A stretch of 42,013 nt of DNA from an uncultured Pirellulales bacterium (GTDB lineage: Bacteria > Planctomycetota > Phycisphaerae > Sedimentisphaerales > Anaerobacaceae), in assembly GCA_964348055.1 (NCBI GenBank), contig CAYGBH010000001.1:1-42013 (forward strand). The letters are read 5' to 3'. This document shows, one piece after another, positions 1-42,013 of this stretch. The notes under the pieces were generated by a model. It saw only the letters and a program-made list of their open reading frames with translations, was not told the origin of the DNA and searched no databases. A program made the position numbers and the translations under genes. Positions within the stretch are counted from its first letter, which is position 1. The number at the start of each line of letters is the position of its first letter.

Positions 1-1
1 T

Positions 2-17216: not shown

Positions 17217-18833
17217 TTAGCCCAAATATCCTAAATTTTTTAAATGCCTTTCTACTTCCTTTTTTTCTTCTTCGTCCAAAGCAGATTTTTTTAAAGATAT
17301 GCTTTCCTTTGCTCTTTCAAAATTGATTTTGTTGTTTTCAAGAAAGTCACGCTTAATTATCTCAGTCAGGACACGGCCGTCAACATCCTCTGGAATTGGC
17401 AATCCCATAAGATAAAGTATTGTGGGCATGATATCGTAGATATCAGCATTAATTCTTTTGCAGTTGAAACAATTTCCGTAAGCGATGAATAATCCCTTCT
17501 CGTCATGATCTCCTGTTTTGTATTTGTTTCCCAATCTGTTTTCACCCACTATAACGGTTTCCAGCGATTCGTTGATTGAATATCCCTCATTCATAATGAC
17601 TAATAAATCGGGTCTGCCCTCACTGCATTCGTCTGAATATATCAATTCGCCTTTGTAAACTGCTTTCACTATGTTTTTGCCCGTTTCAGGGTCCTTCACC
17701 TCAAGCAGTTTCTTCTCAATTAAGTCACATAATTTGTTGTAATCTTTCTGTTCTACAATTCCATCAGGTTCCCTACCTTTCAAGTTCACAGATATTATGC
17801 CATAGCCTTGTAATGAGAAAGCTTTGGTTTTTCTGTGAACAAAATCACCTTCTTTGACACCTTCAGACGGAAATGTTCTCCTAACGAGGTTTATGAGGGG
17901 AATTGGAACATGTTTTTTTAACTTTGCCCATCCTGTTTTTTTTATGATTCTTCGGATGTTAGCCACTGATATATTTAGCTTGGCCAAACTATTCTTAATT
18001 TTATAGTTGTGCCGAGATTCCAACAATCCAGATACTTTAAGAAATGTGTTGATATAAAAGCTCTTTTTAGCTTCCATGAAGCCATGATCAGAAACAATAA
18101 ATAAAACAGTCTCATCATCAAATCTTTTCAAAATATTCCCCAAAATTTCATCCAGCCATTGGTAATACTTTACGCATTCACGATCCATTGAAATGACTTC
18201 GTCCCAGAGGAAATGTTGAAGTCTATCCGGGCCAGTGAATACGAGGAAAAATAAATTCCAGGGATGATTCTCAAGCATATACTCCATCAAGTTTCTTTGG
18301 ACCTCAGTAATCTCGAAGATTTTCTTTAATAATAGATTCATGTCAGTTGAGTACGCGTATTCATCTGTGTCCACGTCAATTTGGTAATTCGGAATGAGCT
18401 CTAAGAGTCTCTTTTTTTCCTCATTAGGGTAAACAAATTCAGCGTTTAGACTTGGTGTCATCAGACCTGAGATCATAATACCGTTAACTTCATCGGGAGG
18501 ATAAGCAAAGGGTGCATTAGCAATTACTACTTTTTTCCCATGTCTGCTTAAAACATACCACACCGGCTCCGCATAAGGGGATGTATTTTTGGTAATGATT
18601 TCGGCCTTGTAGCCTTTTCTTCTCCTGAACTCATAAACACCGTGTTTACCAGGATTCTTTCCTGTAACCAATGAGGTCCAGGCTAAAGGGGATGAAGGCG
18701 GAATAGTAGAACGTAAAATCCCGTGTGTGCCACTGGTTATAACCTTTTTGAAATTCGGCAGTAGGTCCGCCCTAATATAAGGTTCAACGATACGGAGCGT
18801 CATGCCATCCAAGCCTAGTAGAAAAGTTTTCAT
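17217..18833 (-). CDS. Cytoplasmic alkaline-phosphatase-superfamily enzyme (type I phosphodiesterase/nucleotide pyrophosphatase-like, COG3379-like)
   Basis: 'LLGLDGMTLRIVEPYI...LPNFKKV...STIPPSSPLAWTSLVTGKNPGKHGV' is the AP-superfamily metal/nucleophile region. 'FIVSDHGF' and 'TGDHDEKG' are distal metal-ligand motifs. There is no signal peptide. The ATG at 18833 is preceded by GAGGGAG with 7-nt spacing; the listed start is 18857. Confidence 0.8.
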   Translation of the reverse strand: MKTFLLGLDGMTLRIVEPYIRADLLPNFKKVITSGTHGILRSTIPPSSPLAWTSLVTGKNPGKHGVYEFRRRKGYKAEIITKNTSPYAEPVWYVLSRHGKKVVIANAPFAYPPDEVNGIMISGLMTPSLNAEFVYPNEEKKRLLELIPNYQIDVDTDEYAYSTDMNLLLKKIFEITEVQRNLMEYMLENHPWNLFFLVFTGPDRLQHFLWDEVISMDRECVKYYQWLDEILGNILKRFDDETVLFIVSDHGFMEAKKSFYINTFLKVSGLLESRHNYKIKNSLAKLNISVANIRRIIKKTGWAKLKKHVPIPLINLVRRTFPSEGVKEGDFVHRKTKAFSLQGYGIISVNLKGREPDGIVEQKDYNKLCDLIEKKLLEVKDPETGKNIVKAVYKGELIYSDECSEGRPDLLVIMNEGYSINESLETVIVGENRLGNKYKTGDHDEKGLFIAYGNCFNCKRINADIYDIMPTILYLMGLPIPEDVDGRVLTEIIKRDFLENNKINFERAKESISLKKSALDEEEKKEVERHLKNLGYLG

Positions 18834-18911
18834 AATATCTCCCTCAAACACGTGCATTTCTCTATATGCTTAACCCATTTCATATCCAATCAAATACGGT
18901 CATTTCTGATT

Positions 18912-20165
18912 TCATGTCCTAATGCAATTACTTTTTTGCTTGAGTGATCTGAAATCCGAGCAAATTCTGCAGGTATTGCATGGTTGTGGCAGTTGTTCCA
19001 ATGGCATTCTTGATCTACCTAAGAAAAAACTGCGGATAGATTTGAACTTGCCTATATTCCATTGCTCTGTTAACTCCATACTGACACTATTTTGGGGACT
19101 CACAAAAATATCTGCATCTCTGAAACTGGCACAACACGGGTAAACACCACCATCGCAAGTTATAAAAAATGAATTCCATATCTCGTTACATCTTATATCC
19201 CTTCTTTTTTCCCATCTCAATTCTTTTAGATTAAACAATTCTGCCGTTGCTATCCTCCCCGTTTTGTAGAACCCCCCCATTACGGCCGGAGCAAACAGCA
19301 CTTCATCAGCCCCAACAGCCAGTGCTCTTTGCTTAAATAACTCGATTTCGTGCCAATTGTGGTCAAATACAGTGAACTTTGCCGTAATCCAAGGAAAATT
19401 CAGCTCTCTTTTTTTCCTTTCACTTGAAATTCTCTGTATGTTTTCAAACACAAGCTCGACATCACCTCCAATACGGTACTTCTCATATACCTCCTGTGTC
19501 GCACCGTCACAGGAGACAATTAACCTGTGCAATCCAGCATCAACGATTTTTCGCGCCAGTTTGTCATCTCTTATATTCAGGTTGCTGTGAATCAACGTCC
19601 ACAATCCCTTTTCCGTTGCATAAGCACAGGCAGCATAGAAACTATCATTTAGCAATGGCTCACCCCATTGCAAAAAGCCTATTTGAATAGAGCGCTTGGC
19701 AACCTTGTCAACTACACGCTTAATAGTCGGCAGTTCAGCCTTCGACATTTTTCGCGACGAGGGATGCCTCAAGCCTGTTATGCATCCGGGACATCGCAGA
19801 TTGCAGATATTGCTAATATCCATGTTCACAAAGAAGGGGGCATAGTGAACTGCTTCCACCCTATTGTGCTCGACTAGATATATGATATAATTCACGAGTT
19901 TTAAAATGCAGTGAGGCTGCGAAATAAAATTTCTATACCTAAGCAAATAGTATTTATCAAAAAGTCGAGAAACTTTCTTTACTAAACACTTGACCGTTGA
20001 GCTCAGAAAAAACGGCCTCATGTAATTTGGGAATGCTACACTCAACATCTGCTTGTGCAGATTCGACCCCTTTATGCTCTGAGGATCATATTTCGGAGGC
20101 GAGATTCCAGGTTCATATATCTGTGAACACGATTGGCCACGATTTTCCATTCTTCTCTTTTTCAT
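18912..20165 (-). CDS. Radical SAM / SPASM-domain protein with an N-terminal extension of about 110 aa
   Basis: The cluster motif is 'CNLRCPGC', with 'GEPLLN' downstream. The C-terminal auxiliary-cluster region reads 'CNEIWNSFFITCDGGVYPCC...CNTCRIC'. Its ATG lies 3 nt after the wzx stop, suggesting translational coupling. Confidence 0.88.
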   Translation of the reverse strand: MKKRRMENRGQSCSQIYEPGISPPKYDPQSIKGSNLHKQMLSVAFPNYMRPFFLSSTVKCLVKKVSRLFDKYYLLRYRNFISQPHCILKLVNYIIYLVEHNRVEAVHYAPFFVNMDISNICNLRCPGCITGLRHPSSRKMSKAELPTIKRVVDKVAKRSIQIGFLQWGEPLLNDSFYAACAYATEKGLWTLIHSNLNIRDDKLARKIVDAGLHRLIVSCDGATQEVYEKYRIGGDVELVFENIQRISSERKKRELNFPWITAKFTVFDHNWHEIELFKQRALAVGADEVLFAPAVMGGFYKTGRIATAELFNLKELRWEKRRDIRCNEIWNSFFITCDGGVYPCCASFRDADIFVSPQNSVSMELTEQWNIGKFKSIRSFFLGRSRMPLEQLPQPCNTCRICSDFRSLKQKSNCIRT

Positions 20166-20168
20166 GCT

Positions 20169-21704
20169 TTAGGCTTTTTTCATTATCTTTAGGAATTTCA
20201 TTCTAAATACTTCAACTATAAACCTATCTTCATTGTCTATGCCCCATCTACAAATCGACAGCACATATACAGCCAGAAATAATGGAACATAGATTAAAAT
20301 TCCTTGTATGGTTTCCAGATTACGTACTGCGATTCTTGTGAAAAGGCCCACGCCAAATGCTACCATGCCAAAGAATGTGGGTGTAAGGAATTTTGCGTTA
20401 TATGGATGTATTTTCCACAGCAGATATACCTCCATCAGCATTACTAAGTTGAAAACGATGATTGATGTACCGCTGGCCATAGCCGCCCCTGCCATTCCAT
20501 AGCGGGGGATAAAGATACCGTTCAGGAAGATGTTGAGTAGGAAGATACCGATCGTATTATACGTCATAAGATACTGCTTGCCTGACATCCCAAGCATAAA
20601 TCCAGCTGGTCCTGCTGCAGCATTTACGAACTGTGCAAACGCCAGAATTACCAGAGGAATCCACCCTATTACGAATTCTCGGCCGAAAATAGCCATTATC
20701 TCTTTCGGCATCAATGCTATTAGGAAGAATACTGGAAAACTCATTGTGTATACCCATTTTGTTACAGTCTTGAACAAGATTTCAAGTTTATGCTTTTCTT
20801 TTCTATTATATAGGTCAGAAATTATGGGTGCGAAAATAACATTGAAAGAAACCAGTATCATACTTGTAAGCAAGGCAGATCTCATGGCGACATTATAAAT
20901 ACCGACATTTTCAGAAGTTTTGAAATACCCCAGCATTAAGGTATCGGTCCAAATAATAAGGTAGTTCAAAAAACTAACAATTAACAGTGGAATTGAAAAC
21001 CTGAGCAGTTTGCCGACCTCCAGGACGGCCCGTACATGTACAATGTCAGGAAAGACTTTTCCAACAAAGTAGATTGAAAGAATGGAGGTCAGAAAAACTG
21101 ATATTACGTAAGCAAATACTATTCCCCTCAGCCCAAAGCCCAGCAGGAAAAAAAATACTGCTAAAAGCAAATTCGATAAAGGGAGAAATATGCACTGCCC
21201 AAGAGTCCTGTAATGCATTACCTTGAAACCACAGGTTGAGGATATACCGATTAGGAGCAACGATAAAAACGGCAAAGACAGAGACAAGAGTTTAATAACA
21301 TTTTCTATTTCAGGTTTATCAAAAATTCGTGTAAACAGAGATCCTGCTATCAAATATAATATGAACGCGATAACAGTGCTCACGACAAAAGAGTATTTCA
21401 GTGACTCTACAATTACACCTTTAACCCTCCCTTTGTCGTTAATACCATTATAAAGTGCAACATATCTAATAACACCATTCTCAAGACCCATTCTGCAAAT
21501 CATCCCAGTAACGCCGACAACAGTTAACCCCAGCACTAACAGACCAAGGGACTCCGCCCCCAATAACCTCGCCACTGTTATTATATAAAGATACTTCACA
21601 AGACTTTCCACAGCCTGTCCGACAAAAGTAATGCCCGCCCCCTCTGCAATACTGGTTAGTTCACTCTTGTGAAGTTTGGATTTATCTGCTTGGTTTATGA
21701 ACAT
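20169..21704 (-). CDS. wzx: Wzx-type polysaccharide/oligosaccharide flippase (MOP superfamily)
   Basis: It is a polytopic membrane protein of about 510 aa with many hydrophobic segments and the typical N-terminus 'SIAEGAGITFVGQAVESLVKYLYIITVARLLG'. The listed start at 21707 is TTG; the ATG is at 21704. Confidence 0.85.
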   Translation of the reverse strand: MFINQADKSKLHKSELTSIAEGAGITFVGQAVESLVKYLYIITVARLLGAESLGLLVLGLTVVGVTGMICRMGLENGVIRYVALYNGINDKGRVKGVIVESLKYSFVVSTVIAFILYLIAGSLFTRIFDKPEIENVIKLLSLSLPFLSLLLIGISSTCGFKVMHYRTLGQCIFLPLSNLLLAVFFFLLGFGLRGIVFAYVISVFLTSILSIYFVGKVFPDIVHVRAVLEVGKLLRFSIPLLIVSFLNYLIIWTDTLMLGYFKTSENVGIYNVAMRSALLTSMILVSFNVIFAPIISDLYNRKEKHKLEILFKTVTKWVYTMSFPVFFLIALMPKEIMAIFGREFVIGWIPLVILAFAQFVNAAAGPAGFMLGMSGKQYLMTYNTIGIFLLNIFLNGIFIPRYGMAGAAMASGTSIIVFNLVMLMEVYLLWKIHPYNAKFLTPTFFGMVAFGVGLFTRIAVRNLETIQGILIYVPLFLAVYVLSICRWGIDNEDRFIVEVFRMKFLKIMKKA

Positions 21705-21765
21705 CAACTTTTTGACGAACTAAATGAAATTGCATAATTCCGATGCCACTGCACCACCATATCGC

Positions 21766-21860
21766 GTCATCCTGAGCCATAGGCGAAGGATCTGGGTAGC
21801 GAGCATAATGCAACGTTGCTCTCATCCGATGGCCAGATGCTTCATTTCGTTCAGCATGAC
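21766..21860. repeat. 95-bp imperfect palindromic element (REP/MITE-like) in the wzy-wzx spacer
   Basis: The left arm is gtcatcctgagccataggcgaaggatctg (21766-21794). The right arm is cagatgcttcatttcgttcagcatgac (21834-21860), whose reverse complement is gtcatgctgaacgaaatgaagcatctg. An inner stem gagca...tgctc is also present. The termini resemble the 'GTCATCCTGAGC...GAAGGATC' palindromic repeats I recall from many environmental genomes (from memory, not checked). Confidence 0.6.
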
Positions 21861-21908
21861 AATTTTGCTCAGGTAATAACCCATTTCTGGCCTCATTTTC
21901 GTGCAATT

Positions 21909-23429
21909 TCATTTAGTTTCAGAAGGGATACTTTGAGCCTGATCTCTTGACATCTGGCGCAAAGACATGCAAATTCCGATGTATACCCAGAGCTGGGCAT
22001 ATGGGACAAGTTCTCTGCACAGTGGATTGGTCAATCCATCAAGCAGATAGCCAAAAAGTCCGGTCAAAATGGCAAGAGCTAATCCCCGAATCAATGGATC
22101 TGGACATTTCCGCAACGTCCAGCATTTAAACATTGCCAGCAGTATAGGGCCATAGAATCCAATCATGCCGAACAGGCCTATCTCGGAAACAAGATAGAGA
22201 AACAAATTGTGAACAACAAATGTTGTCTTGGAACGGTCATCCCAATTGTGTACGATCACATCAGGTTCTTCCAGCGCATAACTGTAATTTCCTGAGCCAT
22301 ACCCGAAGAAGAAATTTTGATGCCAAATACCCAGCGCTGTCCGGTTCATAGCAAATCGTAATGTCAGAAGTTCTGAGGGGGATTTAACAAAACGGACAAT
22401 AAGATATTCATAGACTCGCGGATAGGAAATACTCACGATGACGAATAACACTATGGCAATGAACAGTGCTTTTGTTTGCTTCCAGGAAAAGATGATAATC
22501 CCCAATGCGAAAACCGATGAAATACCGAAGCTGCACCAGCCGGACCGTGAGAACGTTACAATAAGTCCGCCGATACCTATAATGAGAATTATCGCGAGAG
22601 CGAGTCTAATCTTTAGCTTCCAATGCCGCATCATCATCAGAACGAAGGGAACTGGTAGAATCATACTGAAATACTCTCCCAGTACGTGAGGATCAATAGT
22701 AGTTCCCTCTGCCCTAATCTGCTCGACTATTCCAGGTGTTTTCTTTTGCACTCCAATTTCAGTATCTATTCTTGATGATGATTTGCCCTTGGTTCTGCCA
22801 ATACCTACGTTACCGGTACTTCGTTCGAAAAGGGCAAGGGAGCTTTCAAGCATGATAGCAAATAGCAGCAGTATGATAATCCACTTAAGATGACTGCGTT
22901 TAACTTTGTGCGCGATGAAATAATAGAGCATGACATGTTTGATATTATGTATAATATCAAACACACCCACTAATTTATCAGGGGCTCCGAGCAAAGACAT
23001 AGCCTGTGAGAAGATTAAGAGCAGAATAAAGAAATCGATTTTTCGAAGTTTGGGAAGCGGCTCTTTTCGTACAATAAACACTTGGCCGAACCAGATCAGA
23101 TAAGCCATCAAGAGCATCACTTCTTTCAGTCCCATGCTAAAGCCTGGCATCACGGCATACGGTATATCCTGTTTGAAAAGAACCTTCCCAAATATAGAAA
23201 AGGGAATATTAAATACCATTGCCAAAACAAGAATATCTACAATATAAGATATCCCTATCATGGACACGGAAAGGAATAAAAGTCCCACAGCAAGGGCTAA
23301 GGTAAAGCGGAATTCCAGTTGCGTTATTTTCCAGCACACCAGGGAAAATAATGCAGCGACAAACGCTGTTACCCAGTACTTAGTTTGAAAAACGCTGTCT
23401 AAAACGCGCATCGTCAATAAAAGGGGCAC
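21909..23429 (-). CDS. O-antigen polymerase/ligase family membrane protein (Wzy_C domain), probably the Wzy polymerase
   Basis: It is a 506-aa polytopic membrane protein with the 'TFSRSGW' motif before a hydrophilic loop, typical of the O-antigen ligase/polymerase family. Its position beside wzx and a Wzz-like gene favours Wzy. The start is uncertain: GTG at 23429 or ATG at 23411. Confidence 0.75.
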   Translation of the reverse strand: MPLLLTMRVLDSVFQTKYWVTAFVAALFSLVCWKITQLEFRFTLALAVGLLFLSVSMIGISYIVDILVLAMVFNIPFSIFGKVLFKQDIPYAVMPGFSMGLKEVMLLMAYLIWFGQVFIVRKEPLPKLRKIDFFILLLIFSQAMSLLGAPDKLVGVFDIIHNIKHVMLYYFIAHKVKRSHLKWIIILLLFAIMLESSLALFERSTGNVGIGRTKGKSSSRIDTEIGVQKKTPGIVEQIRAEGTTIDPHVLGEYFSMILPVPFVLMMMRHWKLKIRLALAIILIIGIGGLIVTFSRSGWCSFGISSVFALGIIIFSWKQTKALFIAIVLFVIVSISYPRVYEYLIVRFVKSPSELLTLRFAMNRTALGIWHQNFFFGYGSGNYSYALEEPDVIVHNWDDRSKTTFVVHNLFLYLVSEIGLFGMIGFYGPILLAMFKCWTLRKCPDPLIRGLALAILTGLFGYLLDGLTNPLCRELVPYAQLWVYIGICMSLRQMSRDQAQSIPSETK

Positions 23430-23470
23430 TTCAGCAGATTAGGGGATCTCTGTTTGTGATCAACAGTACT

Positions 23471-24523
23471 TTACTGAAAAAGTCTTCTTTTTTGAAAAAA
23501 AATGGAAGGGAATTTTTTGGCTGAAAAGATAATCTTAGCATCCTTTGTCGAGGTGGTGCCGGGAAAGAAGGCTACGTGTGTGTACCAAAATTCCGGAGGA
23601 AGGTCAATTTTCCTGCGTTCACTTCCGTCGGGTCGGATAGTATATAGTTGAGCAAGGGTTTTCGACTTCTTGAACTTTTCCGGGTTGAAATGCCAGAAGA
23701 CCAACAACTTGCCGTCAGGTGACCATTCAGCAACGCCTTCGACGACATTTGGCGGTGATAAATCGTTTTCCTCACTCGTTTTTAGATCAACAACAACGAG
23801 ATGCCATTCGCCCTTTTTGATATTCCGAAATATGGCGACTTTGGACTTGTCAAGTGACAACTTGGGATCATTCTCCCCTTCTGAGCCACGCGGTGGTGAG
23901 GTTATCCGTTTTAGATTCTTTCCATCGATATCCATAGTATAGATTGAGCGAGTTGGGAATTTCTTTGTCCACGCCGGAAAAACCAGCAAATCTCCAACCA
24001 TATGGGGATCTGTAGGGAAACATCCCTTGGGTACTGGAAGCCGGCGTTTCTTTTTTGTTTTGACATCTATTATGAAAAGTCCTGGCTTTCTGTCAGGTGT
24101 ATCTGTGGAGATGTATAAAATCCCTTTGTCGTCGCTTGTCCAGTAAGGATTTCCGTTGATGACGCCTTTTTTAGCCGGAGTAAGGACCTGAAGCTCCGAA
24201 CCATCGATACGGCACACCACAATCTCTGTATTATCATATCCGTTTGATTCCATGGCCACACCACTGCGTCCAATTGTGTTGAAACGCATGAATGCGATCC
24301 ATTTGTGGTCATTCGATACCTTGGCATGGTTTATCTCTCGCGTTGGATCTCTTATGATTTCCTTGATATTCTTTCCGTCTAAAGTGGAAGTTAAAACAGC
24401 AAAATACTCTGGAGCGAATGGACTCTTGGCTTTTGGCCTTTCCGGACCGGACATCGCAACAGTACAACCTGCAATAATATAGATAATTCCTATGACCAAG
24501 ACAGGAAATCTTAACGTTTTCAT
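23471..24523 (-). CDS. TolB-like (PD40/WD40-like) beta-propeller lipoprotein
   Basis: The lipoprotein signal is 'MKTLRFPVLVIGIIYIIAGC' (lipobox IAGC). PD40-like repeats are present ('VSNDHKWIAFMRF', 'PYWTSDDKGILYIS', 'WSPDGKLLVFW', 'IRPDGSERRKI'). A strong AAAGGAG lies 8 nt before the ATG. Confidence 0.8.
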   Translation of the reverse strand: MKTLRFPVLVIGIIYIIAGCTVAMSGPERPKAKSPFAPEYFAVLTSTLDGKNIKEIIRDPTREINHAKVSNDHKWIAFMRFNTIGRSGVAMESNGYDNTEIVVCRIDGSELQVLTPAKKGVINGNPYWTSDDKGILYISTDTPDRKPGLFIIDVKTKKKRRLPVPKGCFPTDPHMVGDLLVFPAWTKKFPTRSIYTMDIDGKNLKRITSPPRGSEGENDPKLSLDKSKVAIFRNIKKGEWHLVVVDLKTSEENDLSPPNVVEGVAEWSPDGKLLVFWHFNPEKFKKSKTLAQLYTIRPDGSERRKIDLPPEFWYTHVAFFPGTTSTKDAKIIFSAKKFPSIFFQKRRLFQ

Positions 24524-24630
24524 AATCTTACTCCTTTATTGATAAGTTGATATTCAAACCACAAGCAGTTTAGAGTTTACCATTTCACAGTCTCAAACGT
24601 ATAAAGTTGTCCCTAAGACCTCTGATAGAT

Positions 24631-26094: not shown

Positions 26095-26157
26095 AGATTT
26101 GAAATTCACCTAAAGGACTGTTATTTTGATCTGTTAAAGAAGGGAAAAACTTATAAC

Positions 26158-27117: not shown

Positions 27118-27146
27118 GAAACGGAAGCAATCCTATAGAAACGCAA

Positions 27147-31037: not shown

Positions 31038-31040
31038 CTG

Positions 31041-32063: not shown

Positions 32064-32164
32064 CTGATGGATCCCCAATGAGTTTTATTGTTTTCCCTAT
32101 CTAGAATATCGTTCCGAAACCTCTTCTTGGACAATCTATTTGTTCGAAAGTGCGGTCACCGGCA

Positions 32165-33703: not shown

Positions 33704-33796
33704 TGCTCGCCCTTGATTTCTGCATTACTCACGAGTACGTCAGCAGTCGAACTCACTATTTCAAAACTCAGTATTCACGATGTTTTAGCATTTACA

Positions 33797-35122: not shown

Positions 35123-35125
35123 CTG

Positions 35126-35260
35126 TCAAAAACCAGCCTTCCTTAACAAGTAGAATATAAAGATCGACAAAATTGCACCCCACGCGGCGATAATCAGATA
35201 CCGGATTAAGGCTGGCAAGTGTTTGCGTTTCCTCGTTTTTTTTGATGCTTTATTCGTCAT
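35126..35260 (-). CDS. Small (44 aa) single-pass membrane protein, below the ORF-track length cutoff
   Basis: My manual translation is MTNKASKKTRKRKHLPALIRYLIIAAWGAILSIFIFYLLRKAGF*. The ATG at 35260 starts 2 nt after the Wzz-like stop (35263-35265). Its TGA ends 3 nt before the flavoprotein ATG (35122). The N-terminus is strongly basic and is followed by one hydrophobic helix. It fills an otherwise empty 140-nt gap exactly. Confidence 0.5.
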   Translation of the reverse strand: MTNKASKKTRKRKHLPALIRYLIIAAWGAILSIFIFYLLRKAGF

Positions 35261-35262
35261 GA

Positions 35263-36615
35263 TTACGGCTCTTTTACAGTTTCTGGAGAGTGTGTTCGAC
35301 GTCCCTTCACACCCATTGATTTAAAGAAAATTCTGATATTAAAAAATGCAAAAACATATACCAAGCCGACAGACAAGAACAGGCTTAAGAAGGCTGTCAA
35401 ACCAACATGATAGGCCTTGATGGGCTGGACCGGTTTGCTGGGAACCACTGCGTTGTGAAGCACTCTAATTTCGCTCTGGGTTGTAGTTGCTTGTCCGAGC
35501 GCTTCGACATAAAAATCGTTCAAATGGTTGTATTCACGAGTACATGCTTCGATTCTCATATTAAGATTCTTAATCTTTCTATCGAGGGACGGCAATTTAT
35601 CGAGCCTTGCCTTCAAATCCTTAATCGAAGTCGTTATGAATTCACTTCTTTTCAGTAGAGATTCTAAGTCAATTTCCTTGAAAAGTATCTCTGATTCCAT
35701 CTTTTTTATGTCTTCAGGATGGATATAACTCTTGGATTTCTTTTCCGCCGCCAATCGCAGTTCTGTAACTTCTTTTCGCTTTTCTTCAATCTGTGCCTTA
35801 AGTCTAATTATCTCCAGTTCCAATTCGTAAAGGCTGTTTACCCCTTTGGTTGTTTCTTCCGGGACAGAAACAACTTTGTTTTGCACGAGCAAGGCTTCCA
35901 ATTCGGTACGAAGCTTTTCTATTTCTATTTCTTTTTCATTCAGTTGTTCCCTTAACTGGCGGTATTTGTCCTCGGCAGGATTTTTTTCCTGATCTTTTAA
36001 CCAGTTAACCAGGATTTGGCCGGCTGTATCCACAATCGTGGCTGCTCTCTCGGGGTATTTGTCCTTAATCACCAGATAGTAAATATAAGAATCTTTAGTG
36101 GCCTTGAGCTTTAAGCCCTTCCTAAGTCCTTTGATAGCCCTAACCAGGGGTTCCTCTTCTATGACGCGACCGTGTTTCAGTATTGATCTAAGATTTGAAA
36201 GTTGTTCCTTAGCAAAATCTTTTGTCTGCTGGAACCAACGTTTGTACCATAGCGAATCATAGACGGTTACCTCTTCCTTGTCCAGGCCGAGTTCATTCAC
36301 GACGGGCTTAAGGATTACTTCACTTCTTAGTATATCCTGTAGAGTTTGGATGATAACCTTAAACGGAGGAGTGGGAGCTGGGGCACCGAATGTTTCTGTA
36401 TCTTTTTGTCTGAGCAGGCTTGTTTCCAGGGGACGATAGAATATAGGCACACCGGTCTCGTATTTCTCGGAGAAGACATAGGTAAGAGCCAGCGAGCACA
36501 GACAAGCGGACAGGCAGAAGACTAAAACGAACGACTTTTGCTGCATCAGAATAGTCACGTACTTGCGGAAGTCTATATTGAACAGGTACTTGAATGGGTC
36601 TCTTTGTTCAGACAT
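35263..36615 (-). CDS. Wzz/GumC-like polysaccharide co-polymerase (chain-length determinant), with no kinase domain
   Basis: The N-terminal TM is 'FVLVFCLSACLCSLALTYVF' and the C-terminal TM is 'GLTAFLSLFLSVGLVYVFAFF'. Between them lies a long periplasmic region rich in coiled coil ('LREQLNEKEIEIEKLRTELEAL...'). No Walker A/B or Tyr-rich tail is present. Confidence 0.8.
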   Translation of the reverse strand: MSEQRDPFKYLFNIDFRKYVTILMQQKSFVLVFCLSACLCSLALTYVFSEKYETGVPIFYRPLETSLLRQKDTETFGAPAPTPPFKVIIQTLQDILRSEVILKPVVNELGLDKEEVTVYDSLWYKRWFQQTKDFAKEQLSNLRSILKHGRVIEEEPLVRAIKGLRKGLKLKATKDSYIYYLVIKDKYPERAATIVDTAGQILVNWLKDQEKNPAEDKYRQLREQLNEKEIEIEKLRTELEALLVQNKVVSVPEETTKGVNSLYELELEIIRLKAQIEEKRKEVTELRLAAEKKSKSYIHPEDIKKMESEILFKEIDLESLLKRSEFITTSIKDLKARLDKLPSLDRKIKNLNMRIEACTREYNHLNDFYVEALGQATTTQSEIRVLHNAVVPSKPVQPIKAYHVGLTAFLSLFLSVGLVYVFAFFNIRIFFKSMGVKGRRTHSPETVKEP

Positions 36616-36660
36616 GTCAAAACACCCTAAGTTTTTTGATAAAATCCTTTTTGAGCCTGG

Positions 36661-38220
36661 TCAGGCTGCCGGCACATCCTTTACTTTAATATGCTTTCTC
36701 TTCTTCAACACGATGCTCAGAAGCTTTCGAGTATCGGAAAGCTTGGCATGGCCGATACGTTCGACCTTTGTGCTCTCTACACCCCTTAAGATGTTAAATA
36801 TCGTTGAAAACAACCGCCATGGCCTACACAGGTAGCTGATAAAGAAAAACTGCAGATAGCCCCATCTGCGCCACCTGGCTATTCTCTTCGGTGAAACTCC
36901 CTCAATCCAGGACGCTGCTCGGGAAAGATCTGACATATATAAAAGATCGGAAAAGAACTTATCCGTCAGCTCAACTTTCCCCTGCTCCATTAACATATAA
37001 AACAGCTTCGAGCCCGGCAGAGCTGTAAATGTACAGATACTTATCTCATGAACACCTATCCAGGCAAGTTTCCTCATGAACTTGAAGGATTTTCTGATAT
37101 CAGCAATCGTGTCATGGGGGAAGCCTATGGCAAAAAAGGCACAGACAACAAAACCCTTCTTTATAAGCCGTCTGGAACCTTCCACAATATCATTCAGGTC
37201 CAAATCCTTTTCAATCAGACTTAAAGTCTTTGGGCAGCCACTCTCAGGCGCAAACGCGACATTGGAACAACCGCTGGCCTTGAGCTTGTCGATTACTTCG
37301 TCATCGAAGATCTCGGACCTTGTTCCGTTGGGCATTTGCCATGTTATTTTCAGACCTCGTTTTAAAACCTCGTCAGCAAACTCGATAGCCCATGACCTAT
37401 CAAATATCATGGTGAGGTCTTCGAAGTGGAAATCATCGATACCGTACAATTTGTACCAGTGCTCCATCTCATCGACTACATTCTTAGGTGATCTGCTACG
37501 CCACTTTGGCAACCACATTTTGGGAGCTGTACAAAACGTGCAAGTATAAGGACATCCCCTGGTGGCGATCATCTGCAGGCATCTTCCTCGCGAAGCGCCG
37601 TGAGGGCTTCTTGCCTGGATATAATTTTCGATTGGCAGCAGGTCGTAGGCCGGAAACGGTAAAATGTCCAGATCCTCGATCAAATCCGTCAGTTGTTTCT
37701 CTTTGACAACAGGTTTGCCGTCATGCATATAGGCAATACCACTGAGGTCATCTGTACTCTGCTTCTTTTCAAGTCGTTCGACAAGTTTTAGAAATGTTAT
37801 TTCCCCCTCCCCGAGAACCACATAATCTATGGTCCCATGCGAAAGGATAAAATCAGGAATTGCGGTCTGGTTGATACCACCAGTGACAATTGGGATCTTG
37901 GGGAATTTTTCCTTTATCATACGAGTGAGTTTGCGAACCACAGGCCAGGCGTGGGAAAACAGATTTGTGACTCCGATGACATCCAAACCGTCGGGTATCC
38001 GGTCCAATATTTCCGGCAGAGTAAGACCGCGAAGCGTGGCTTCTCCATCTTTGGTGAAGATATCAACTCCTGATCCGAGGGCATCGATGAATTGAACGTT
38101 ATGCCCATGTTTACGAAGATATGCTGCTATGTAAGCAGCTCCGATCGGCGGGACTACACCACTGGCAATCTGAGTCACCCTGTACACTTGTGGTGGATTG
38201 ATTAAAAGTACGTTTGCCAT
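36661..38220 (-). CDS. B12-binding-domain radical SAM protein (class B-like), second copy
   Basis: The B12-binding-like N-domain is indicated by 'MANVLLINPP...', 'VIGVTNLF' and 'IPIVTGGINQT'. It is followed by 'MIATRGCPYTCTFCTAP' (CX3CX2C). A strong GGAGGAG lies 11 nt upstream of the ATG. Confidence 0.85.
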   Translation of the reverse strand: MANVLLINPPQVYRVTQIASGVVPPIGAAYIAAYLRKHGHNVQFIDALGSGVDIFTKDGEATLRGLTLPEILDRIPDGLDVIGVTNLFSHAWPVVRKLTRMIKEKFPKIPIVTGGINQTAIPDFILSHGTIDYVVLGEGEITFLKLVERLEKKQSTDDLSGIAYMHDGKPVVKEKQLTDLIEDLDILPFPAYDLLPIENYIQARSPHGASRGRCLQMIATRGCPYTCTFCTAPKMWLPKWRSRSPKNVVDEMEHWYKLYGIDDFHFEDLTMIFDRSWAIEFADEVLKRGLKITWQMPNGTRSEIFDDEVIDKLKASGCSNVAFAPESGCPKTLSLIEKDLDLNDIVEGSRRLIKKGFVVCAFFAIGFPHDTIADIRKSFKFMRKLAWIGVHEISICTFTALPGSKLFYMLMEQGKVELTDKFFSDLLYMSDLSRAASWIEGVSPKRIARWRRWGYLQFFFISYLCRPWRLFSTIFNILRGVESTKVERIGHAKLSDTRKLLSIVLKKRKHIKVKDVPAA

Positions 38221-38241
38221 ATTAACCTCATCTCCTCCGAG

Positions 38242-39189
38242 TTATGTTGTACTAATTTCAGACGTTTTTAACTCTTTATAATACTTGATGATCTCATTAA
38301 TTTTGTCACTCAATTTTGCCTTAGGGTGGTAGCCCAGGTTATTCTGAGCCCGATTTATATTAGCAACAGAGTATCGTAGCTCTCCGGGCTGAGCATCACC
38401 ATGCACAGGTTGAATTTTGGGATCGATCCTGTCACAAAGCAACTTGGCGATATAATTAACAGATATCTTCACACCGGTCCCAATATTAAAAATACCCCGA
38501 GGTATCGTCGATTTCATAGATAAAATATTCGCAGTGACAATGTCGCTTACGTGTGTGAAGTCGCGCTGTTGTTGACCATTGCCAAAAATTACAGGAGCTT
38601 TTCTATCAAGAAGGTTATTTATAAAGATGGTTATGACTCCTACATATGGGGTAAAGGCCTGACCCGTTCCATAAGTATTAAAGTAACGAAGCACATGGCA
38701 ATCTATATTAGTGTACTCTGAAAACTGCAGACAATACTTTTCACTCGCTAATTTCGAGACTCCATATGGAGAAATGGGTTCTGTTCTATAATCCTCCGCA
38801 ATTGGTTCGGGCGCGGGACAGTCGGCATAAACAGCCATTGAAGACGCAAAGATAATTTTTTTCACTGTGCTATTGAGACAACATCTGAGGAGATTAACCG
38901 TTCCCATAAGGTTATTTTCTGCATCATCATAAAATCCATCTACCGAGGAGCGAATACTTACTCTGGCGGCCTCATGAAAGATAATGTCCACTCCCTTGAG
39001 CGCCTTTAGAATGTCGTCCCGGCATCGCACATCTCCGTGAATGAATTTCGCACCTTCGGGAACATTTTCAATCTTTCCGACTGAAAGGTTGTCTATAATG
39101 ACGACTTCCATCGCCTCTTTTAAAAGTGTCCGCGCAAGATGGGAGCCAATAAATCCGGCACCCCCTGTCACTAACGCTCTTTCATACAT
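38242..39189 (-). CDS. NAD-dependent nucleotide-sugar epimerase/dehydratase (extended SDR, GalE-like)
   Basis: The Rossmann motif is 'LVTGGAGFIGSHL'. The catalytic elements are 'ASSMAVY' and 'YGVSKLASE' (YxxxK). Confidence 0.9.
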   Translation of the reverse strand: MYERALVTGGAGFIGSHLARTLLKEAMEVVIIDNLSVGKIENVPEGAKFIHGDVRCRDDILKALKGVDIIFHEAARVSIRSSVDGFYDDAENNLMGTVNLLRCCLNSTVKKIIFASSMAVYADCPAPEPIAEDYRTEPISPYGVSKLASEKYCLQFSEYTNIDCHVLRYFNTYGTGQAFTPYVGVITIFINNLLDRKAPVIFGNGQQQRDFTHVSDIVTANILSMKSTIPRGIFNIGTGVKISVNYIAKLLCDRIDPKIQPVHGDAQPGELRYSVANINRAQNNLGYHPKAKLSDKINEIIKYYKELKTSEISTT

Positions 39190-39281
39190 AACTTGTTACT
39201 TTCTACATTGATCTTAAGACTTTGTTTTGCTTCGTTCTTTGTGTTTCTCATGGAGCAATCAGCCCTATTGTTAGGCTGCGT

Positions 39282-40244
39282 TTACAAAATATCAAGTGGT
39301 GTTTTTTCCTGTATGAATTGCCGGCAGTCGATTTGATGCTCGGGTGCTACAATAAAGCGATCGATGTCCTCAGTTGATGTGACTACCGTATAAGGGAAAA
39401 TCACCGTATTGATTATCTTGATAGGGTGCTGGATAACTGCGCCGACACCCACAACCGAATTTTCGATCTTTGCCCCAGAATGAATGTCAGTCGAATCACC
39501 GATTAAGGTCTTTTTGCCAAGCCTTTTTAGCTGGTGAAGATTACAGGTCAGAACGTCAGCAGGGAAGGTGACGTTCATATCCCACTTGACGACATCAGCA
39601 ATTAGAACGGGGAATTCGTCTTCAATGACAATCTGAATGGTATCGGTGATTTCGTACTCATCTCTCATAGCTGTCCTTGGCGTGCGCCTTATGGCATCGA
39701 ACACATGCTGATCAAAGAGGTATAAACCACATCCTTTTATTTTGGTGGTGGTATGGCGAGGTTTTTCTATAACTCTTTTTGCCTTGTTATCATCACCGAG
39801 CAATACCGTGAAATTTCGCTTGATAACTTCCGGGTTCTCTTCGTATTTGACGGCAAGAACCACACTTGCATTGTTGGCAATCATTTTTTCTTTCATACTT
39901 CTCAAATCTTCGGTGACGAAGAAGACATCCCCCAGAGATAGGAGGAAAGGAGAAGATATGTACGATTCCAGCTTTCCCAATGCGTGCGCTATGCCTAGTG
40001 TTTCTTTTTGCTCGACATATCTGATCTTTACCCCTAGATAGCGTCCGTCCCCCAAAGCCTGTGCGATTTCGTGTCCAAGGTGACCTATGACAATTATGAT
40101 CTCCTCTATATCCAGTTCCTTCATCATCTCGATTTGGTAGTGAAGCAATGGCTTGTTGCAAATGGGCAATATCGGCTTGGGATAACGCGTACTGAAAGGC
40201 TCCATTCTTGTGCCTTTGCCCGCCGCTAGGATTACTCCAATCAT
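39282..40244 (-). CDS. Sugar-1-phosphate nucleotidylyltransferase with a C-terminal left-handed beta-helix-like region
   Basis: The NTP-transferase motif is 'GVILAAGKGTRMEPFSTRYPKPILPICNKPLL', followed by 'LGIAHAL'. The C-terminus has hexapeptide-like repeats ('IHSGAKIENSVVGVGAVIQ'). The listed start at 40256 is TTG; the ATG is at 40244. Confidence 0.88.
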   Translation of the reverse strand: MIGVILAAGKGTRMEPFSTRYPKPILPICNKPLLHYQIEMMKELDIEEIIIVIGHLGHEIAQALGDGRYLGVKIRYVEQKETLGIAHALGKLESYISSPFLLSLGDVFFVTEDLRSMKEKMIANNASVVLAVKYEENPEVIKRNFTVLLGDDNKAKRVIEKPRHTTTKIKGCGLYLFDQHVFDAIRRTPRTAMRDEYEITDTIQIVIEDEFPVLIADVVKWDMNVTFPADVLTCNLHQLKRLGKKTLIGDSTDIHSGAKIENSVVGVGAVIQHPIKIINTVIFPYTVVTSTEDIDRFIVAPEHQIDCRQFIQEKTPLDIL

Positions 40245-40268
40245 TTGATACTTCAACCTTGTCTGTTA

Positions 40269-41003
40269 TTAAAGTTTATTTATGACCTTTTTTCGATAAA
40301 GTCTGAGTTTAAATTTCAGGTAGAAAAGGAAACAAAGCATCTCAAAGCCTGTTCTAAAAACTCTGAGCTTTGTTTCGCCGCCTTCTCTGGCATGATGTTT
40401 TATTCCCATTTCTCCCACTTTATACCCCTGGGCTTTCAGGCGTATCATGATCTCCGTTGGCGTGGGCCATGCCCGTGCTTCGATGCGCATACTCCTAATA
40501 GCATCTCCCTTGAAGACCTTCAAAGCGCAATTAGTGTCCTTCTGGTTAAGCCAGAACATTATCCTGACTATGAGATTCAAAACCCGGTCCGCAAAGACCC
40601 GAATAAACTTGTCTTCTTTCCGGATCCTGTAGCCGGTTACTACATCGAGGTTTTCTTTTTGCAGTTTCTCGAGCATGGGGGCATAATCAGCCAGATCGAA
40701 TTGACCGTCCGAGTCCAACATAACCACATACTCACCTCTGGTGGCATATATGGCACTAAACAGAGCGTTGCCGTAACCACTGGGCTGCGGTGCATGGACC
40801 ACTGTAAGGTTTGTGTGCTCTGTGCCTAAACGCTCCAGAATCTCGAGAGTTTTGTCGTTACTGCCGCCGTCTCCCAGCACAACCTCATGGGAGATGCCAT
40901 TTTTCTTCAGGACTTCAAACCAGTATCTGATGATTTCCTCTATGACCTGTTCTTCGTTATAGACAGGAGCCACCACAGATAGAGAAACGGAATTCTTTTC
41001 CAT
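40269..41003 (-). CDS. GT2 glycosyltransferase, probably a polyprenyl-phosphate sugar synthase (DPM1/GtrB/ArnC-like), copy 2 of a tandem pair
   Basis: GT2 motifs are 'LSVVAPVYNEE', 'GDGGSNDKT' and 'MLDSDGQFD'. The C-terminus has a hydrophobic/amphipathic tail 'FEMLCFLFYLKFKL'. The listed start at 41042 is TTG, overlapping the upstream stop. The ATG at 41003 aligns with the paralog's N-terminus. Confidence 0.8.
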   Translation of the reverse strand: MEKNSVSLSVVAPVYNEEQVIEEIIRYWFEVLKKNGISHEVVLGDGGSNDKTLEILERLGTEHTNLTVVHAPQPSGYGNALFSAIYATRGEYVVMLDSDGQFDLADYAPMLEKLQKENLDVVTGYRIRKEDKFIRVFADRVLNLIVRIMFWLNQKDTNCALKVFKGDAIRSMRIEARAWPTPTEIMIRLKAQGYKVGEMGIKHHAREGGETKLRVFRTGFEMLCFLFYLKFKLRLYRKKVINKL

Positions 41004-41038
41004 AATTGATACGTGACCATCAAAAGATGATGATGAAA

Positions 41039-41788
41039 TCAAAAATCATTAATGACCCTGGTTCTTTTCAGAAAAAGTTTCAATCGCAGGTAAAGAAGAA
41101 ACAGGAGCATATCCCATCCGGTCCGAATCAGTCTCAGATGAGACTGTCCACCGGTCCTTTCTTTGTGGTTAATGCCGACCTCACCTATTCGAGCACCCTG
41201 TCCCTGCAGTCGCAGGAGAATTTCGGTTGGCGTTGGGTAGAACCTTGCCTCGATCGTTATATTTCTGATTAAATCCCCTTTGAAAAGCTTCAGGGCACAG
41301 TTTGTGTCTTTGTACTTCAGACCAAAGAGTACCCTGACAATGATATTTAAAAACCGGTCTGCTAAAATTCTCAGGAATGTGTCTTTTTTTCCCATTCGAT
41401 AGCCCGTCACCGTGTCATAGTTGTTCTTAAGACATTCCTGTAGAAGCGGCAGATAATCTGAAAGTTCGAATTGGCCGTCAGAATCTATCGTAACAACGTA
41501 TTGACCACGGCTGGCGTAAATAGCCTTGAAAAGGGCATCCCCATACCCGCCGTTTTGCTTCGAGTGGACTGCCCGAAGATTCGGAAACTCTTCCGCAAGT
41601 TGTTCCAGGATCTGTTTTGTTCCGTCGGTGCTGCCGTCATTGCCAATCACTATTTCGGTGGCATGTTCACACTTCTCCAGGACCTTTTCCCAATTTCGGA
41701 TGACCGCATCAATGTTTTCTTCCTCATTATAGGCCGGCGCTACCACGGATAGGAATATGTCACTGTTTGTCTTGTCCGGTCCCTTCAT
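41039..41788 (-). CDS. GT2 glycosyltransferase, probably a polyprenyl-phosphate sugar synthase (DPM1/GtrB/ArnC-like), copy 1 of a tandem pair
   Basis: GT2 motifs are 'LSVVAPAYNEE', 'GNDGSTDGT' and 'TIDSDGQFE', with the tail 'WDMLLFLLYLRLKL'. By eye it is roughly half identical to the downstream copy along its full length. Confidence 0.8.
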   Translation of the reverse strand: MKGPDKTNSDIFLSVVAPAYNEEENIDAVIRNWEKVLEKCEHATEIVIGNDGSTDGTKQILEQLAEEFPNLRAVHSKQNGGYGDALFKAIYASRGQYVVTIDSDGQFELSDYLPLLQECLKNNYDTVTGYRMGKKDTFLRILADRFLNIIVRVLFGLKYKDTNCALKLFKGDLIRNITIEARFYPTPTEILLRLQGQGARIGEVGINHKERTGGQSHLRLIRTGWDMLLFLLYLRLKLFLKRTRVINDF

Positions 41789-41804
41789 GGAACAACATTA
41801 ACCT

Positions 41805-42013
41805 TTATGATGTTTTTACCTTTTGTTTTTTCATATAGGAGAACGAATGCAATCCTAACATAATAAGTGGGATAATTTTCATCTTCTGGGTCCTGATCTT
41901 ACTGTAAACAAAACTCAGCTTGAAAATAAGATGAAATATAGCATTTTTAGGTAGCCTGATGATGCATCGCACCACGAACAGGGGCATTCTCAATTGGGCG
42001 AACACCTGCATCA
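41805..42013 (-). CDS. 3' end of an unidentified gene running off the window edge (hydrophobic, possibly a membrane protein)
   Basis: The frame is open to the window end. The C-terminal 68 codons are hydrophobic/basic ('PLFVVRCIIRL...IIPLIMLGLHSF'). The stop lies 16 nt before the next operon gene. I recognise no family motif. Confidence 0.35.
   Translation of the reverse strand, partial: MQVFAQLRMPLFVVRCIIRLPKNAIFHLIFKLSFVYSKIRTQKMKIIPLIMLGLHSFSYMKKQKVKTS

Follow-up and report, generated by a model that had tools for sequence, protein, structure and literature searches.

Gene organization of the polysaccharide operon

The window analyzed here is a 42,013-nucleotide stretch of DNA from an uncultured Pirellulales bacterium (contig CAYGBH010000001.1), and positions 16728 to 42013 of it are occupied by a Wzx/Wzy polysaccharide operon, in which ordinary surface-glycan genes are interspersed with genes for radical S-adenosylmethionine (rSAM) enzymes. 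The operon lies on the minus strand throughout and has a GC content of approximately 42%. It is split near 16.7 kb from the left part of the window (1 to 16.6 kb), which has plus-strand genes and a GC content of approximately 54%, the 12-point drop falling at convergent gene ends. A first-pass annotation, made from the sequence alone, had listed the genes of the operon, and their strand, coordinates, and domain content were borne out by Pfam. Gaps inside the operon range from -4 to 201 nt; of the 3 to about 200 nt given in that annotation, the upper end held and the lower end turned out to be an overlap of 4 nt. The distance from the last gene, encoding an AP-superfamily enzyme, to a downstream rSAM remnant is 225 nt.

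The Wzx/Wzy scaffold of the locus is essentially shown, as judged by its domain matches. The initiating enzyme is a phosphoglycosyl transferase (PGT; 26158 to 27117), which matched PF02397 (Bac_transf) at 183 bits against a cutoff of 27 and the EPS_sugtrans model at 231 bits against a cutoff of 296. A Wzx flippase of the MOP superfamily (20169 to 21707) matched PF01943 (80 bits), PF13440 (72 bits), and MatE, and a Wzy-like polymerase or ligase (21909 to 23429) matched PF04932 (Wzy_C) at 47.4 bits against a cutoff of 31.7. A Wzz-like polysaccharide co-polymerase without a kinase domain (35263 to 36615) scored just under the cutoffs (GNVR, 27.5 versus 27.7 bits; Wzz, 19.7 versus 25.5 bits), gave a sub-threshold match to the XrtA chain-length-determinant model, and keeps its position in the relatives described below. 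No outer-membrane exporter (Wza) was found in the window; in one relative (L008), a Poly_export (Wza-type) gene opens the operon upstream. Among the glycosyltransferases, the putative repeat-unit enzyme GT2_b (31041 to 32078, PF00535) and a GT4 enzyme (29919 to 31037, PF00534) lie together in a diverged cassette, and GT2_c (24631 to 26109, PF00535) combines a GT2 domain with a C-terminal extension of about 250 aa and has weak matches to rhamnosyltransferase and GlfT1 models. Two further GT2 genes stand in tandem, GT2_a1 (41039 to 41788, PF00535) and its paralogue GT2_a2 (40269 to 41042), which is 57% identical to it and overlaps it by 4 nt. Their best solved relatives are ArnC (E=2e-17), GtrB, and DPMS, in agreement with the polyprenyl-phosphate type assigned to the pair at first, and GT2_a1 is kept in all syntenic relatives.

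Three genes may account for the sugar supply. The first encodes a sugar-1-phosphate nucleotidyltransferase with a C-terminal left-handed beta-helix (39282 to 40256, PF00483), with RmlA-long and archaeal GlmU-like NCBIfam matches that were all sub-cutoff, and the second encodes a GalE-like SDR epimerase (38242 to 39189, PF01370; TIGR01179 galE, 174 bits versus a cutoff of 262). The third encodes a flavoprotein (33797 to 35122; Pfam Amino_oxidase) that aligned over its full length, residues 7 to 421, with the UDP-galactopyranose mutase (UGM) of Trypanosoma cruzi (PDB 4dsg, E=1.4e-45), so that the label UGM-like is upheld, and with the UGM of Aspergillus fumigatus (E=3e-36). Since the bacterial-type model TIGR00031 reached only 23 bits against a cutoff of 304, the flavoprotein appears to be of the eukaryote-like UGM type. 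Together, the three enzymes suggest a conventional supply line for NDP-Glc, NDP-Gal, and NDP-Galf (NDP, nucleoside diphosphate; Galf, galactofuranose), and they probably provide NDP-hexose and also NDP-galactofuranose. The usual tailoring genes had been described as absent; this is right for aminotransferase, acetyltransferase, and SN2 methyltransferase domains, none of which was detected by Pfam in the operon, yet with this supply line present, the sugar chemistry is not all missing.

The remaining non-rSAM genes are less readily placed. A beta-propeller lipoprotein with weak TolB/PD40-like matches (23471 to 24523; PD40, 21.3 bits; TolB, 51 bits versus a cutoff of 343) has a 53% identical copy in L008. 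At the end of the operon, the AP-superfamily enzyme (17217 to 18857) belongs to the type I phosphodiesterase/nucleotide pyrophosphatase family (PF01663, 142 bits) and carries no predicted membrane anchor; a sequence search found no solved relative for it. A small conserved open reading frame (ORF), orf44 (35126 to 35260), encodes a basic 44-aa protein with a single hydrophobic helix and no Pfam match. The UGM-like gene invariably comes next downstream, and the identity of orf44 is 95 to 98% in L002, L016, and L017 and 49 to 53% in L008 and L018.

Domains, motifs, and family scores of the radical SAM enzymes

The rSAM genes were named A to F, where A, B, and C are of the SPASM/twitch type, D and E carry a B12-binding domain, and F is cut by the right window edge. 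The enzymes are rSAM_A (18912 to 20165, CNLRCPGC), which has an N-terminal extension of about 110 aa, rSAM_B (27147 to 28469, CNLRCITC), and rSAM_C (28614 to 29840, CNYKCIFC), all three with PF04055 and PF13186, followed by rSAM_D (32165 to 33703, CPYRCSFC) and rSAM_E (36661 to 38220, CPYTCTFC), both with PF02310 and PF04055. In all five, PF04055 was above the cutoff and the CX3CX2C motifs were intact, exactly as first quoted. Their mutual identity is only 22 to 26%, which indicates that A to E are distinct subfamilies and not recent duplicates. In the gene order, C, B, and the PGT are neighbors, and A neighbors Wzx.

The SPASM domain (PF13186, cutoff of 21.5 bits) was matched at 29.9 bits by A, 50.7 bits by B, and 43.3 bits by C. 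Both A and C have eight C-terminal cysteine residues, with a spacing that is non-canonical relative to the seven-cysteine motif. In rSAM_B, only five C-terminal cysteine residues are conserved over 11 orthologues, with the spacing C-x17-CC-x39-CxxC, suggesting a twitch-like enzyme with a single auxiliary cluster; accordingly, its earlier label of SPASM-rSAM stands for the PF13186 match and not for a full seven-cysteine SPASM domain. We take this pattern to resemble the ligand spacing of the single auxiliary cluster of BtrN. The reading frame of rSAM_B opens at a GTG, and the database version starts at a later ATG and is 419 aa long. The B12-binding domain (PF02310) was matched at 62.6 bits by D and 69.1 bits by E.

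At the right window edge, the gene that had been listed as a partial gene of unknown function (41805 to 42013, about 69 codons) is in fact the C terminus of rSAM_F. A Logan contig (L015) runs 822 bp past the edge, and F is there a 273-aa fragment that matches PF04055 (E=7e-14, 52.8 bits) and does not reach the region of the CX3CX2C motif. Orthologues of F are 66% identical in L018 and 60% identical in L008; the latter, a full-length protein, has B12-binding and Radical_SAM domains, and F is assigned to the B12 class by this orthology. Within the window, F is 32% identical to rSAM_D. Because L015 extends F as an rSAM and its orthologue in L008 is full length, we count at least six intact rSAM genes (A to F) in the locus, together with one SPASM remnant. 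The remnant is an 87-aa ORF on the minus strand (16728 to 16991) in which no more than the end of a SPASM domain (CxxC) survives; its identity is 31% to the tail of rSAM_B and at most 42% to other SPASM proteins. Its PF13186 score of 26.4 bits exceeds the Pfam cutoff of 21.5, indicating a genuine remnant of another rSAM, as proposed when it was first described as a decayed sixth copy.

To place these enzymes among described families, they were compared with the curated NCBIfam models, which cover anSME, PqqE, MftC, NirJ/Ahb, the W-cofactor maturase, HpnJ, BchE, PhpK/Sden_1168, AprD4, BlsE, and others. None of A to E, nor the F orthologue, reached the curated cutoff of any family, and thus the check for a known function unrelated to the glycan, a possibility that the first-pass annotation had allowed for, returned none. 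The best scores and their cutoffs were 86/380 for A, 150/380 for B, 109/380 for C, 127/578 for D, 208/575 for E, and 133/578 for the F orthologue, with HpnJ as the top model for D and F and the Sden_1168 P-methyltransferase for E; the curated AprD4 and BlsE models were far below cutoff. We also rejected the known cofactor maturases, as the models for W-cofactor, pyrroloquinoline quinone (PQQ), mycofactocin, heme d1/Ahb, MoaA, and BchE were far below cutoff. A defense system was rejected as well, given that PADLOC found only a generic rSAM-core similarity to pVip (30 to 57 bits, in the N-terminal half), and so was viperin itself (NCBIfam model, 26 to 49 bits versus a cutoff of 180).

Most of the solved proteins nearest in sequence act on carbohydrates, namely, AprD4 for D (E=1e-13) and E (E=9e-17) and BlsE and BtrN for B and C, with DesII among the matches of A, whose best solved relative is GDGT-MAS (7tol). 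An AlphaFold2 model of rSAM_E (pLDDT of 86.7) had MgmA, TsrM, AprD4, OxsB, TokK, and CysS as top Foldseek matches, with query-normalized TM-scores of 0.57 to 0.63 to MgmA, TsrM, TokK, and CysS. The fold-alignment identity to solved rSAM enzymes is approximately 12 to 22%.

Syntenic relatives and cassette variation

About 20 kb of the operon is covered, at 99.7 to 100% protein identity, by two independently assembled Logan contigs of the same run, ERR2564004 (L001 and L015), and five related contigs (L002, L016, L017, L018, and L008) share the gene order, each over the part it covers. The shared order is F-GT2-GT2-nucleotidyltransferase-epimerase-E-Wzz-orf44-UGM-GT2-GT4-PGT-GT2-TolB-like. It is kept in L008 and L018 and, over the part of the contig that is available, in L002 and L017; L016 has the same order, with only a 41-aa remnant of F left (L016:6287-6409). 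An assembly chimera within the operon, which had been named as a way for the first interpretation to fail, is therefore rejected, since the independent assemblies and the five related contigs repeat the gene order. This exclusion applies to the operon and not to the junction with the high-GC flank at approximately 16.7 kb.

The radical enzymes differ in how they are distributed over these contigs. rSAM_E is present in all five relatives, always between the epimerase and the Wzz-like gene, with an identity of approximately 91% in L002 and L016, 80% in L017, 71% in L018, and 64% in L008. rSAM_F is found in L008 and L018, and in L018 a second B12-rSAM stands beside it. rSAM_B is present in L002 (88%) and L016 (87%) and missing from L008 and L018 between GT4 and the PGT, and rSAM_C and rSAM_D were seen in the window only, D being missing at that position in L002, L016, L008, and L018. 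As seen in the nucleotide alignment with L016, the D region spans about 1.8 kb in the window versus 87 bp, and the C region spans about 1.46 kb versus 111 bp. Between them, the GT2_b-GT4 segment is 64 to 71% identical in nucleotide sequence to L002 and L016, in comparison to 86 to 91% in the flanks. C and D are thus clean gene-sized indels that bracket the diverged GT2_b-GT4 segment, suggesting that both are tied to glycosyltransferase specificity. Overall, E and F belong to the conserved core of the locus family, B varies in its presence, and C and D make up its accessory cassette genes. O-antigen and capsule loci diversify through the same kind of cassette mosaic.

The remnant of F in L016 and the SPASM tail at the 3' end of the operon show that rSAM genes decay repeatedly in this locus family and suggest that its set of radical enzymes turns over rapidly. 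L016 also encodes, at its upstream end (positions 6 to 1142), opposite to the place of the gene in the window, a 28% identical homologue of the AP-superfamily enzyme, indicating that AP-superfamily enzymes recur in this locus family, though not beside rSAM_A.

Homologues in other neighborhoods and fusion proteins

Next, the neighborhoods of more distant homologues were examined for glycan genes, the expected co-occurrence being another point raised in the first-pass annotation. It is supported by the synteny of E and F down to 64% identity, by clusters around homologues of A, B, C, and E (L003, L004, L012, L014, and L028, and L023 in part), and by fusions, and it fails in L006, L011, and L013. 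Orthologues of rSAM_B (41 to 44%) lie in glycosyltransferase-rich or lipopolysaccharide-core clusters, adjoining PMT_2 GT-C genes (L003 and L004). A homologue of rSAM_A (47%, L014) is found among Glycos_transf_4, Wzz-GNVR, Wzy_C, methyltransferase, and epimerase genes, and the rSAM_A homologues at 43 to 57% identity are named Phycisphaerae, Sedimentisphaerales, or Planctomycetes. An rSAM_C-like gene (32%, L028) starts 4 nt downstream of a GT4 gene, with another rSAM nearby. In the Omnitrophica, an rSAM_E homologue (42%, L012) belongs to a large NDP-sugar/NeuB/CMP-transferase cluster with two further rSAMs, and on plasmid AZO_p6 of Azospirillum lipoferum 4B, the B12-rSAM AZOLI_RS29460, which is 27% identical to E, is in a nonulosonic-acid cluster with neuC, rfbC, and a flippase gene. 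A search of the plasmid collection for close cultured relatives returned homologues of at most 33% identity only.

Two E-like genes from a single metagenome, 34 to 35% identical to E, have more mixed surroundings. One (L023:4034-17746) stands beside genes for HMG-CoA reductase, mevalonate kinase, and a decarboxylase, with a GT2, an epimerase, and two rSAMs on the other side; the other (L025:9995-21307) is in a neighborhood with four rSAMs in all and a JmjC/cupin hydroxylase, where a DegT aminotransferase is the sole sugar-type neighbor. Loci with several rSAMs are therefore not confined to the window: L012, L018, and L023 have three each, those of L018 being three B12-rSAMs inside the same locus family. 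The uniqueness implied at first was overstated; multi-rSAM glycan loci recur in uncultured anaerobes.

rSAM_C itself belongs to a rare orthogroup, as an exhaustive search of 1.84e9 representative proteins gave three representative clusters at 46% identity or more. Fusion candidates were drawn from its top 150 relatives. In P0369, Bac_transf, ferredoxin, methyltransferase, and rSAM/SPASM domains are apparently fused in one protein, which is 35% identical to C over the length of the enzyme and has the motif CNYRCQFC. P0428 and P0489 are apparent fusions of a GT2 with rSAM/SPASM, the two GT2 types being different, and in P0368 and P0366, a B12-rSAM resembling E or D is apparently joined to two or three modules resembling C. 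The protein sequences are continuous, with no junk linkers. These fusions among the relatives of rSAM_C appear to be the strongest functional link between the rSAM enzymes and the glycan.

A separate observation is that P0364 to P0368 and P0370 are predicted giants of 990 to 1930 aa with two to four tandem rSAM/SPASM modules, two of them with an N-terminal B12-rSAM; they may be multi-rSAM megaenzymes or may result from gene-calling read-through.

Comparison with known systems

The locus shares a PGT, glycosyltransferases, Wzx, Wzy_C, and a Wzz-like protein with the Wzx/Wzy loci for O-antigen, capsule, and exopolysaccharide (the Salmonella O-antigen, colanic acid of Escherichia coli, and group 1 capsule). 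It also shares with them the low-GC island and the mosaic central glycosyltransferase cassette, as well as the Wza-type exporter gene seen upstream in L008. It differs in having at least six rSAM genes and no aminotransferase, acetyltransferase, or SN2-methyltransferase tailoring genes. The rSAM enzymes of antibiotic pathways, such as BtrN (a twitch dehydrogenase), DesII, BlsE, and AprD4, are among the closest solved proteins by sequence, whereas the context here is a surface-glycan assembly line and not a secondary-metabolite cluster.

The B12-domain enzymes D and E, and F through its L008 orthologue, share an N-terminal B12-binding domain and an rSAM core with the class B methyltransferases GenK, Fom3, TokK, TsrM, CysS, and MgmA. 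However, the non-methylating enzymes AprD4, OxsB, BchE, and HpnJ use the same fold and score equally well, and no family cutoff was reached. In the hopanoid pathway, the GT2 enzyme HpnI adds GlcNAc to a lipid, and the B12-rSAM HpnJ then contracts the sugar ring. The locus resembles this pair in having a B12-domain rSAM beside a GT2 making a lipid-linked sugar; the difference is that D and F, at 127 to 133 bits against a cutoff of 578, are not members of the HpnJ family, that no hopanoid genes are present, and that the lipid would be polyprenyl phosphate.

Regarding precedents in surface polysaccharides, the HS:19 capsule locus of Campylobacter jejuni includes a "radical SAM metalloprotein" at the level of annotation (CjjRM3420_1449; PMC8743553), and a preprint on Omnitrophota reports the co-occurrence of PF04055 with sugar-metabolism domains. 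The C. jejuni and A. lipoferum 4B clusters share with the window an rSAM gene embedded in a surface-polysaccharide cluster; in those cases, the rSAMs are single uncharacterized genes, distantly related, without the six-enzyme complement or the combination of B12 and SPASM enzymes. We found no characterized rSAM with an assigned role in a Wzx/Wzy locus in the literature searched, which left subscription journals mostly outside, so this is absence of evidence only.

Proposed function and alternative explanations

Taken together, we consider it fairly probable that the locus is a horizontally mobile, serotype-variable Wzx/Wzy surface-polysaccharide operon and that the rSAM enzymes are integral to it as glycan tailoring enzymes. 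The functional coupling of the rSAM enzymes to the Wzx/Wzy scaffold is well supported, and they are probably part of glycan assembly. In the model that we propose, the domain content and homology of the scaffold genes show that the nucleotidyltransferase, the GalE-like epimerase, and the UGM-like mutase supply NDP-hexose and probably NDP-Galf, that the Bac_transf PGT starts the repeat unit on polyprenyl phosphate, and that GT2_b, GT4, and GT2_c lengthen it. Wzx then flips the unit, Wzy polymerizes it, and the Wzz-like protein would set the chain length; the ArnC/GtrB-like GT2 pair makes polyprenyl-phosphate monosaccharides for side-branch decoration. The cytoplasmic rSAM enzymes would modify carbon atoms of sugars that are bound to a nucleotide or, with greater likelihood, to polyprenyl diphosphate, substrates of the latter kind being suggested by the fusions and by the adjacency of C, B, and the PGT.

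Which reactions would take place is purely our inference, and this includes the C-methylation, epimerization, oxidation, and deoxygenation of sugars put forward in the first-pass annotation, whose link between the rSAM enzymes and the glycan is otherwise supported. For F, E, and D, class-B-type chemistry may be expected, most likely the C-methylation of unactivated sugar carbons, or alternatively a rearrangement or dehydration as in HpnJ, OxsB, or AprD4. For A, B, and C, a two-electron oxidation, epimerization, decarboxylation, or deoxygenation like those of BtrN, DesII, or BlsE could be envisaged. In this manner, the rSAM set might substitute for the aminotransferase, acyltransferase, and methyltransferase repertoire missing from the locus, and the presence or absence of B, C, and D combined with swapped GT2_b-GT4 alleles could yield structural (antigenic) variants.

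Several observations weigh against a role of these enzymes in the glycan. The association of rSAM genes with glycan loci is not universal: no glycan context was found for homologues of E (60%, L011), A (46%, L013), and B (40%, L006/L007), and the E-like gene of L023 (34%) abuts mevalonate-pathway genes. The contigs of close relatives end before A and the AP-superfamily enzyme. Every similarity to characterized rSAM enzymes sits below the family cutoffs, and the matches to AprD4, BtrN, BlsE, DesII, and the class B methylases are weak and do not discriminate among sugar, peptide, and lipid substrates. The fold search places E over the whole class-B fold without separating methylases from non-methylases (AprD4 and OxsB), and the model of rSAM_B has low confidence (pLDDT of 66), with fold matches that mix sugar and peptide enzymes (SkfB, SuiB, CteB, and anSME). 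The fusions are known from protein only, and they may come from stop-codon read-through by the gene caller, although the adjacency of the genes would be documented even then.

The mevalonate neighbors in L023, together with HpnJ as the top match of D and F, make lipid instead of sugar chemistry possible. The rSAM enzymes would then act on lipids, either the polyprenyl carrier or those of the membrane or anchor, by methylation, cyclization, or C-C coupling, and the glycan would be displayed on a modified lipid, for which HpnP/HpnR, the ladderane-associated B12-rSAMs, and Tes/GDGT-MAS are models. In addition to these matches, a "lipid biosynthesis B12-binding/radical SAM" model is prominent among the hits, GDGT-MAS is the closest solved relative of A, and a phospholipid methyltransferase gene is in the neighborhood of the C-like rSAM of L028. 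All of these matches are nevertheless far under the curated cutoffs, and HpnJ itself targets the sugar moiety of a glycolipid. Pfam detected no lipid-synthesis gene in the operon, the fusion partners are PGT and GT2 catalytic domains and not prenyl or lipid synthases, and the covariation of C and D with glycosyltransferase alleles speaks for an effect on glycan structure; we thus regard lipid modification as unlikely. [quoted passage not shown] Against this, no rSAM carries an RRE/PqqD domain (PF05402), no plausible precursor ORF was found in the operon gaps, and the operon has no peptidase or ABC exporter, on which grounds a RiPP cluster was rejected; orf44 is a small hydrophobic membrane-type protein beside the UGM-like gene and beside no SPASM gene. 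The anSME and RiPP models are far under cutoff for A, B, and C. The adjacency of A and the AP-superfamily gene is not kept in either of the two A homologues examined (L013 and L014), leaving A as maturase of its neighbor unsupported. Moreover, that neighbor belongs to PF01663 and not to the sulfatase family PF00884, and PF01663 members normally use a Ser/Thr nucleophile, for which no radical maturation is needed. We consider a maturase role quite improbable.

Some of the rSAM genes could also be unrelated passengers, or decaying, having accumulated in a recombination-prone low-GC island without adding anything to the glycan. The decay is visible in the SPASM remnant and in the 41-aa remnant of F in L016, relatives do without B, C, and D, and homologues exist outside glycan loci (L006, L011, and L013). 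Nonetheless, the rSAM genes of the window are counted intact, with complete motifs in A to E and tight operon spacing, and E and F are retained across relatives as the identity of E falls from 91% to 64%. The gain and loss of accessory tailoring genes is a normal route of polysaccharide-locus diversification, and the fusion proteins argue for functional coupling, so that passengers seem to us very unlikely as the explanation.

If the rSAM enzymes do tailor the glycan, radical sugar chemistry would extend from antibiotic pathways to the assembly of cell-surface polysaccharides. Several new rSAM functional families would be defined, the E family alone having thousands of unnamed members in many phyla, and sugar structures so far unseen in O-antigens or capsules would be predicted. 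It would also explain how strict anaerobes could diversify their surface antigens without the toolkit that depends on pyridoxal phosphate, acyl-CoA, and SN2 methyl transfer. More tentatively, and with considerable doubt, we suggest that uncultured anaerobes widely possess an as yet unrecognized class of "radical glycan assembly lines," whose twitch/SPASM and B12 rSAMs might use sugars linked to polyprenyl diphosphate as their direct substrates. Fusions of these enzymes to a PGT or GT2 would exist in some lineages, and the modifications installed would be such as C-methyl branches, C-C cross-links, or sugars of the keto, deoxy, or carbocyclic type, with the gain and loss of rSAM cassettes serving as serotype switching. 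We know of no modifications of this kind in bacterial surface polysaccharides. The scaffold of the locus is ordinary, and it is combined with an unusually large set of uncharacterized radical enzymes, which is part of a wider, unstudied phenomenon. The fusion and cassette evidence makes the role of rSAM enzymes in glycan loci, a long-ignored question, directly testable. The apparent PGT-methyltransferase-rSAM and GT2-rSAM fusions provide concrete, testable enzyme-substrate hypotheses, with a polyprenyl-diphosphate sugar as the substrate, and the Azospirillum plasmid cluster offers a cultured and genetically tractable entry point.

Flanking region and minor features

The flank (1 to 16664, plus strand) is a polysaccharide-degradation neighborhood with a GH2 enzyme, a TAT-signal sulfatase, a DUF1961-esterase fusion, and a DUF4962/heparinase II/III-like protein, in addition to a 1086-aa protein that combines a methyltransferase-like N terminus with PQQ/BamB-type beta-propellers. 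The sulfatase falls into a 90%-identity cluster of 172 members named Planctomycetota. As judged from these genes and from the naming of the rSAM_A homologues, an anaerobic planctomycete that degrades polysaccharides is the most likely host. On the minus strand of the flank, a lower-GC patch of this high-GC region contains a further intact rSAM ORF outside the operon (2731 to 3858), which is PflX-like, with the motif CGLRCVFC. It has an N-terminal cysteine-rich motif and an apparent twin-arginine-type leader (RRKFIKS), which is odd for a cytoplasmic Fe-S enzyme, and it gave no NCBIfam or PDB sequence match.

No Rfam match or tRNA was found, so there is no indication of a riboswitch or a tRNA-linked island, and promoter-like and terminator-like sites showed no excess over shuffled controls. 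Between Wzy and Wzx, a palindromic element (21718 to 21918) noticed in the first reading has 17-nt perfect inverted arms (21718 to 21734 and 21902 to 21918) around a GC-richer stretch of 167 nt. The window contains one copy of it, and the predicted RNA hairpin has a modest stability advantage over shuffled sequences (z = -2.4). The Logan contig L001 stops inside this element, a hint that the genome may contain a repeated or MITE-like element at other sites. Finally, a perfect 12-nt tandem repeat, TTTTGTGTAATA, is present in 2.8 copies (17000 to 17033) in the gap that separates the SPASM remnant from the AP-superfamily gene.

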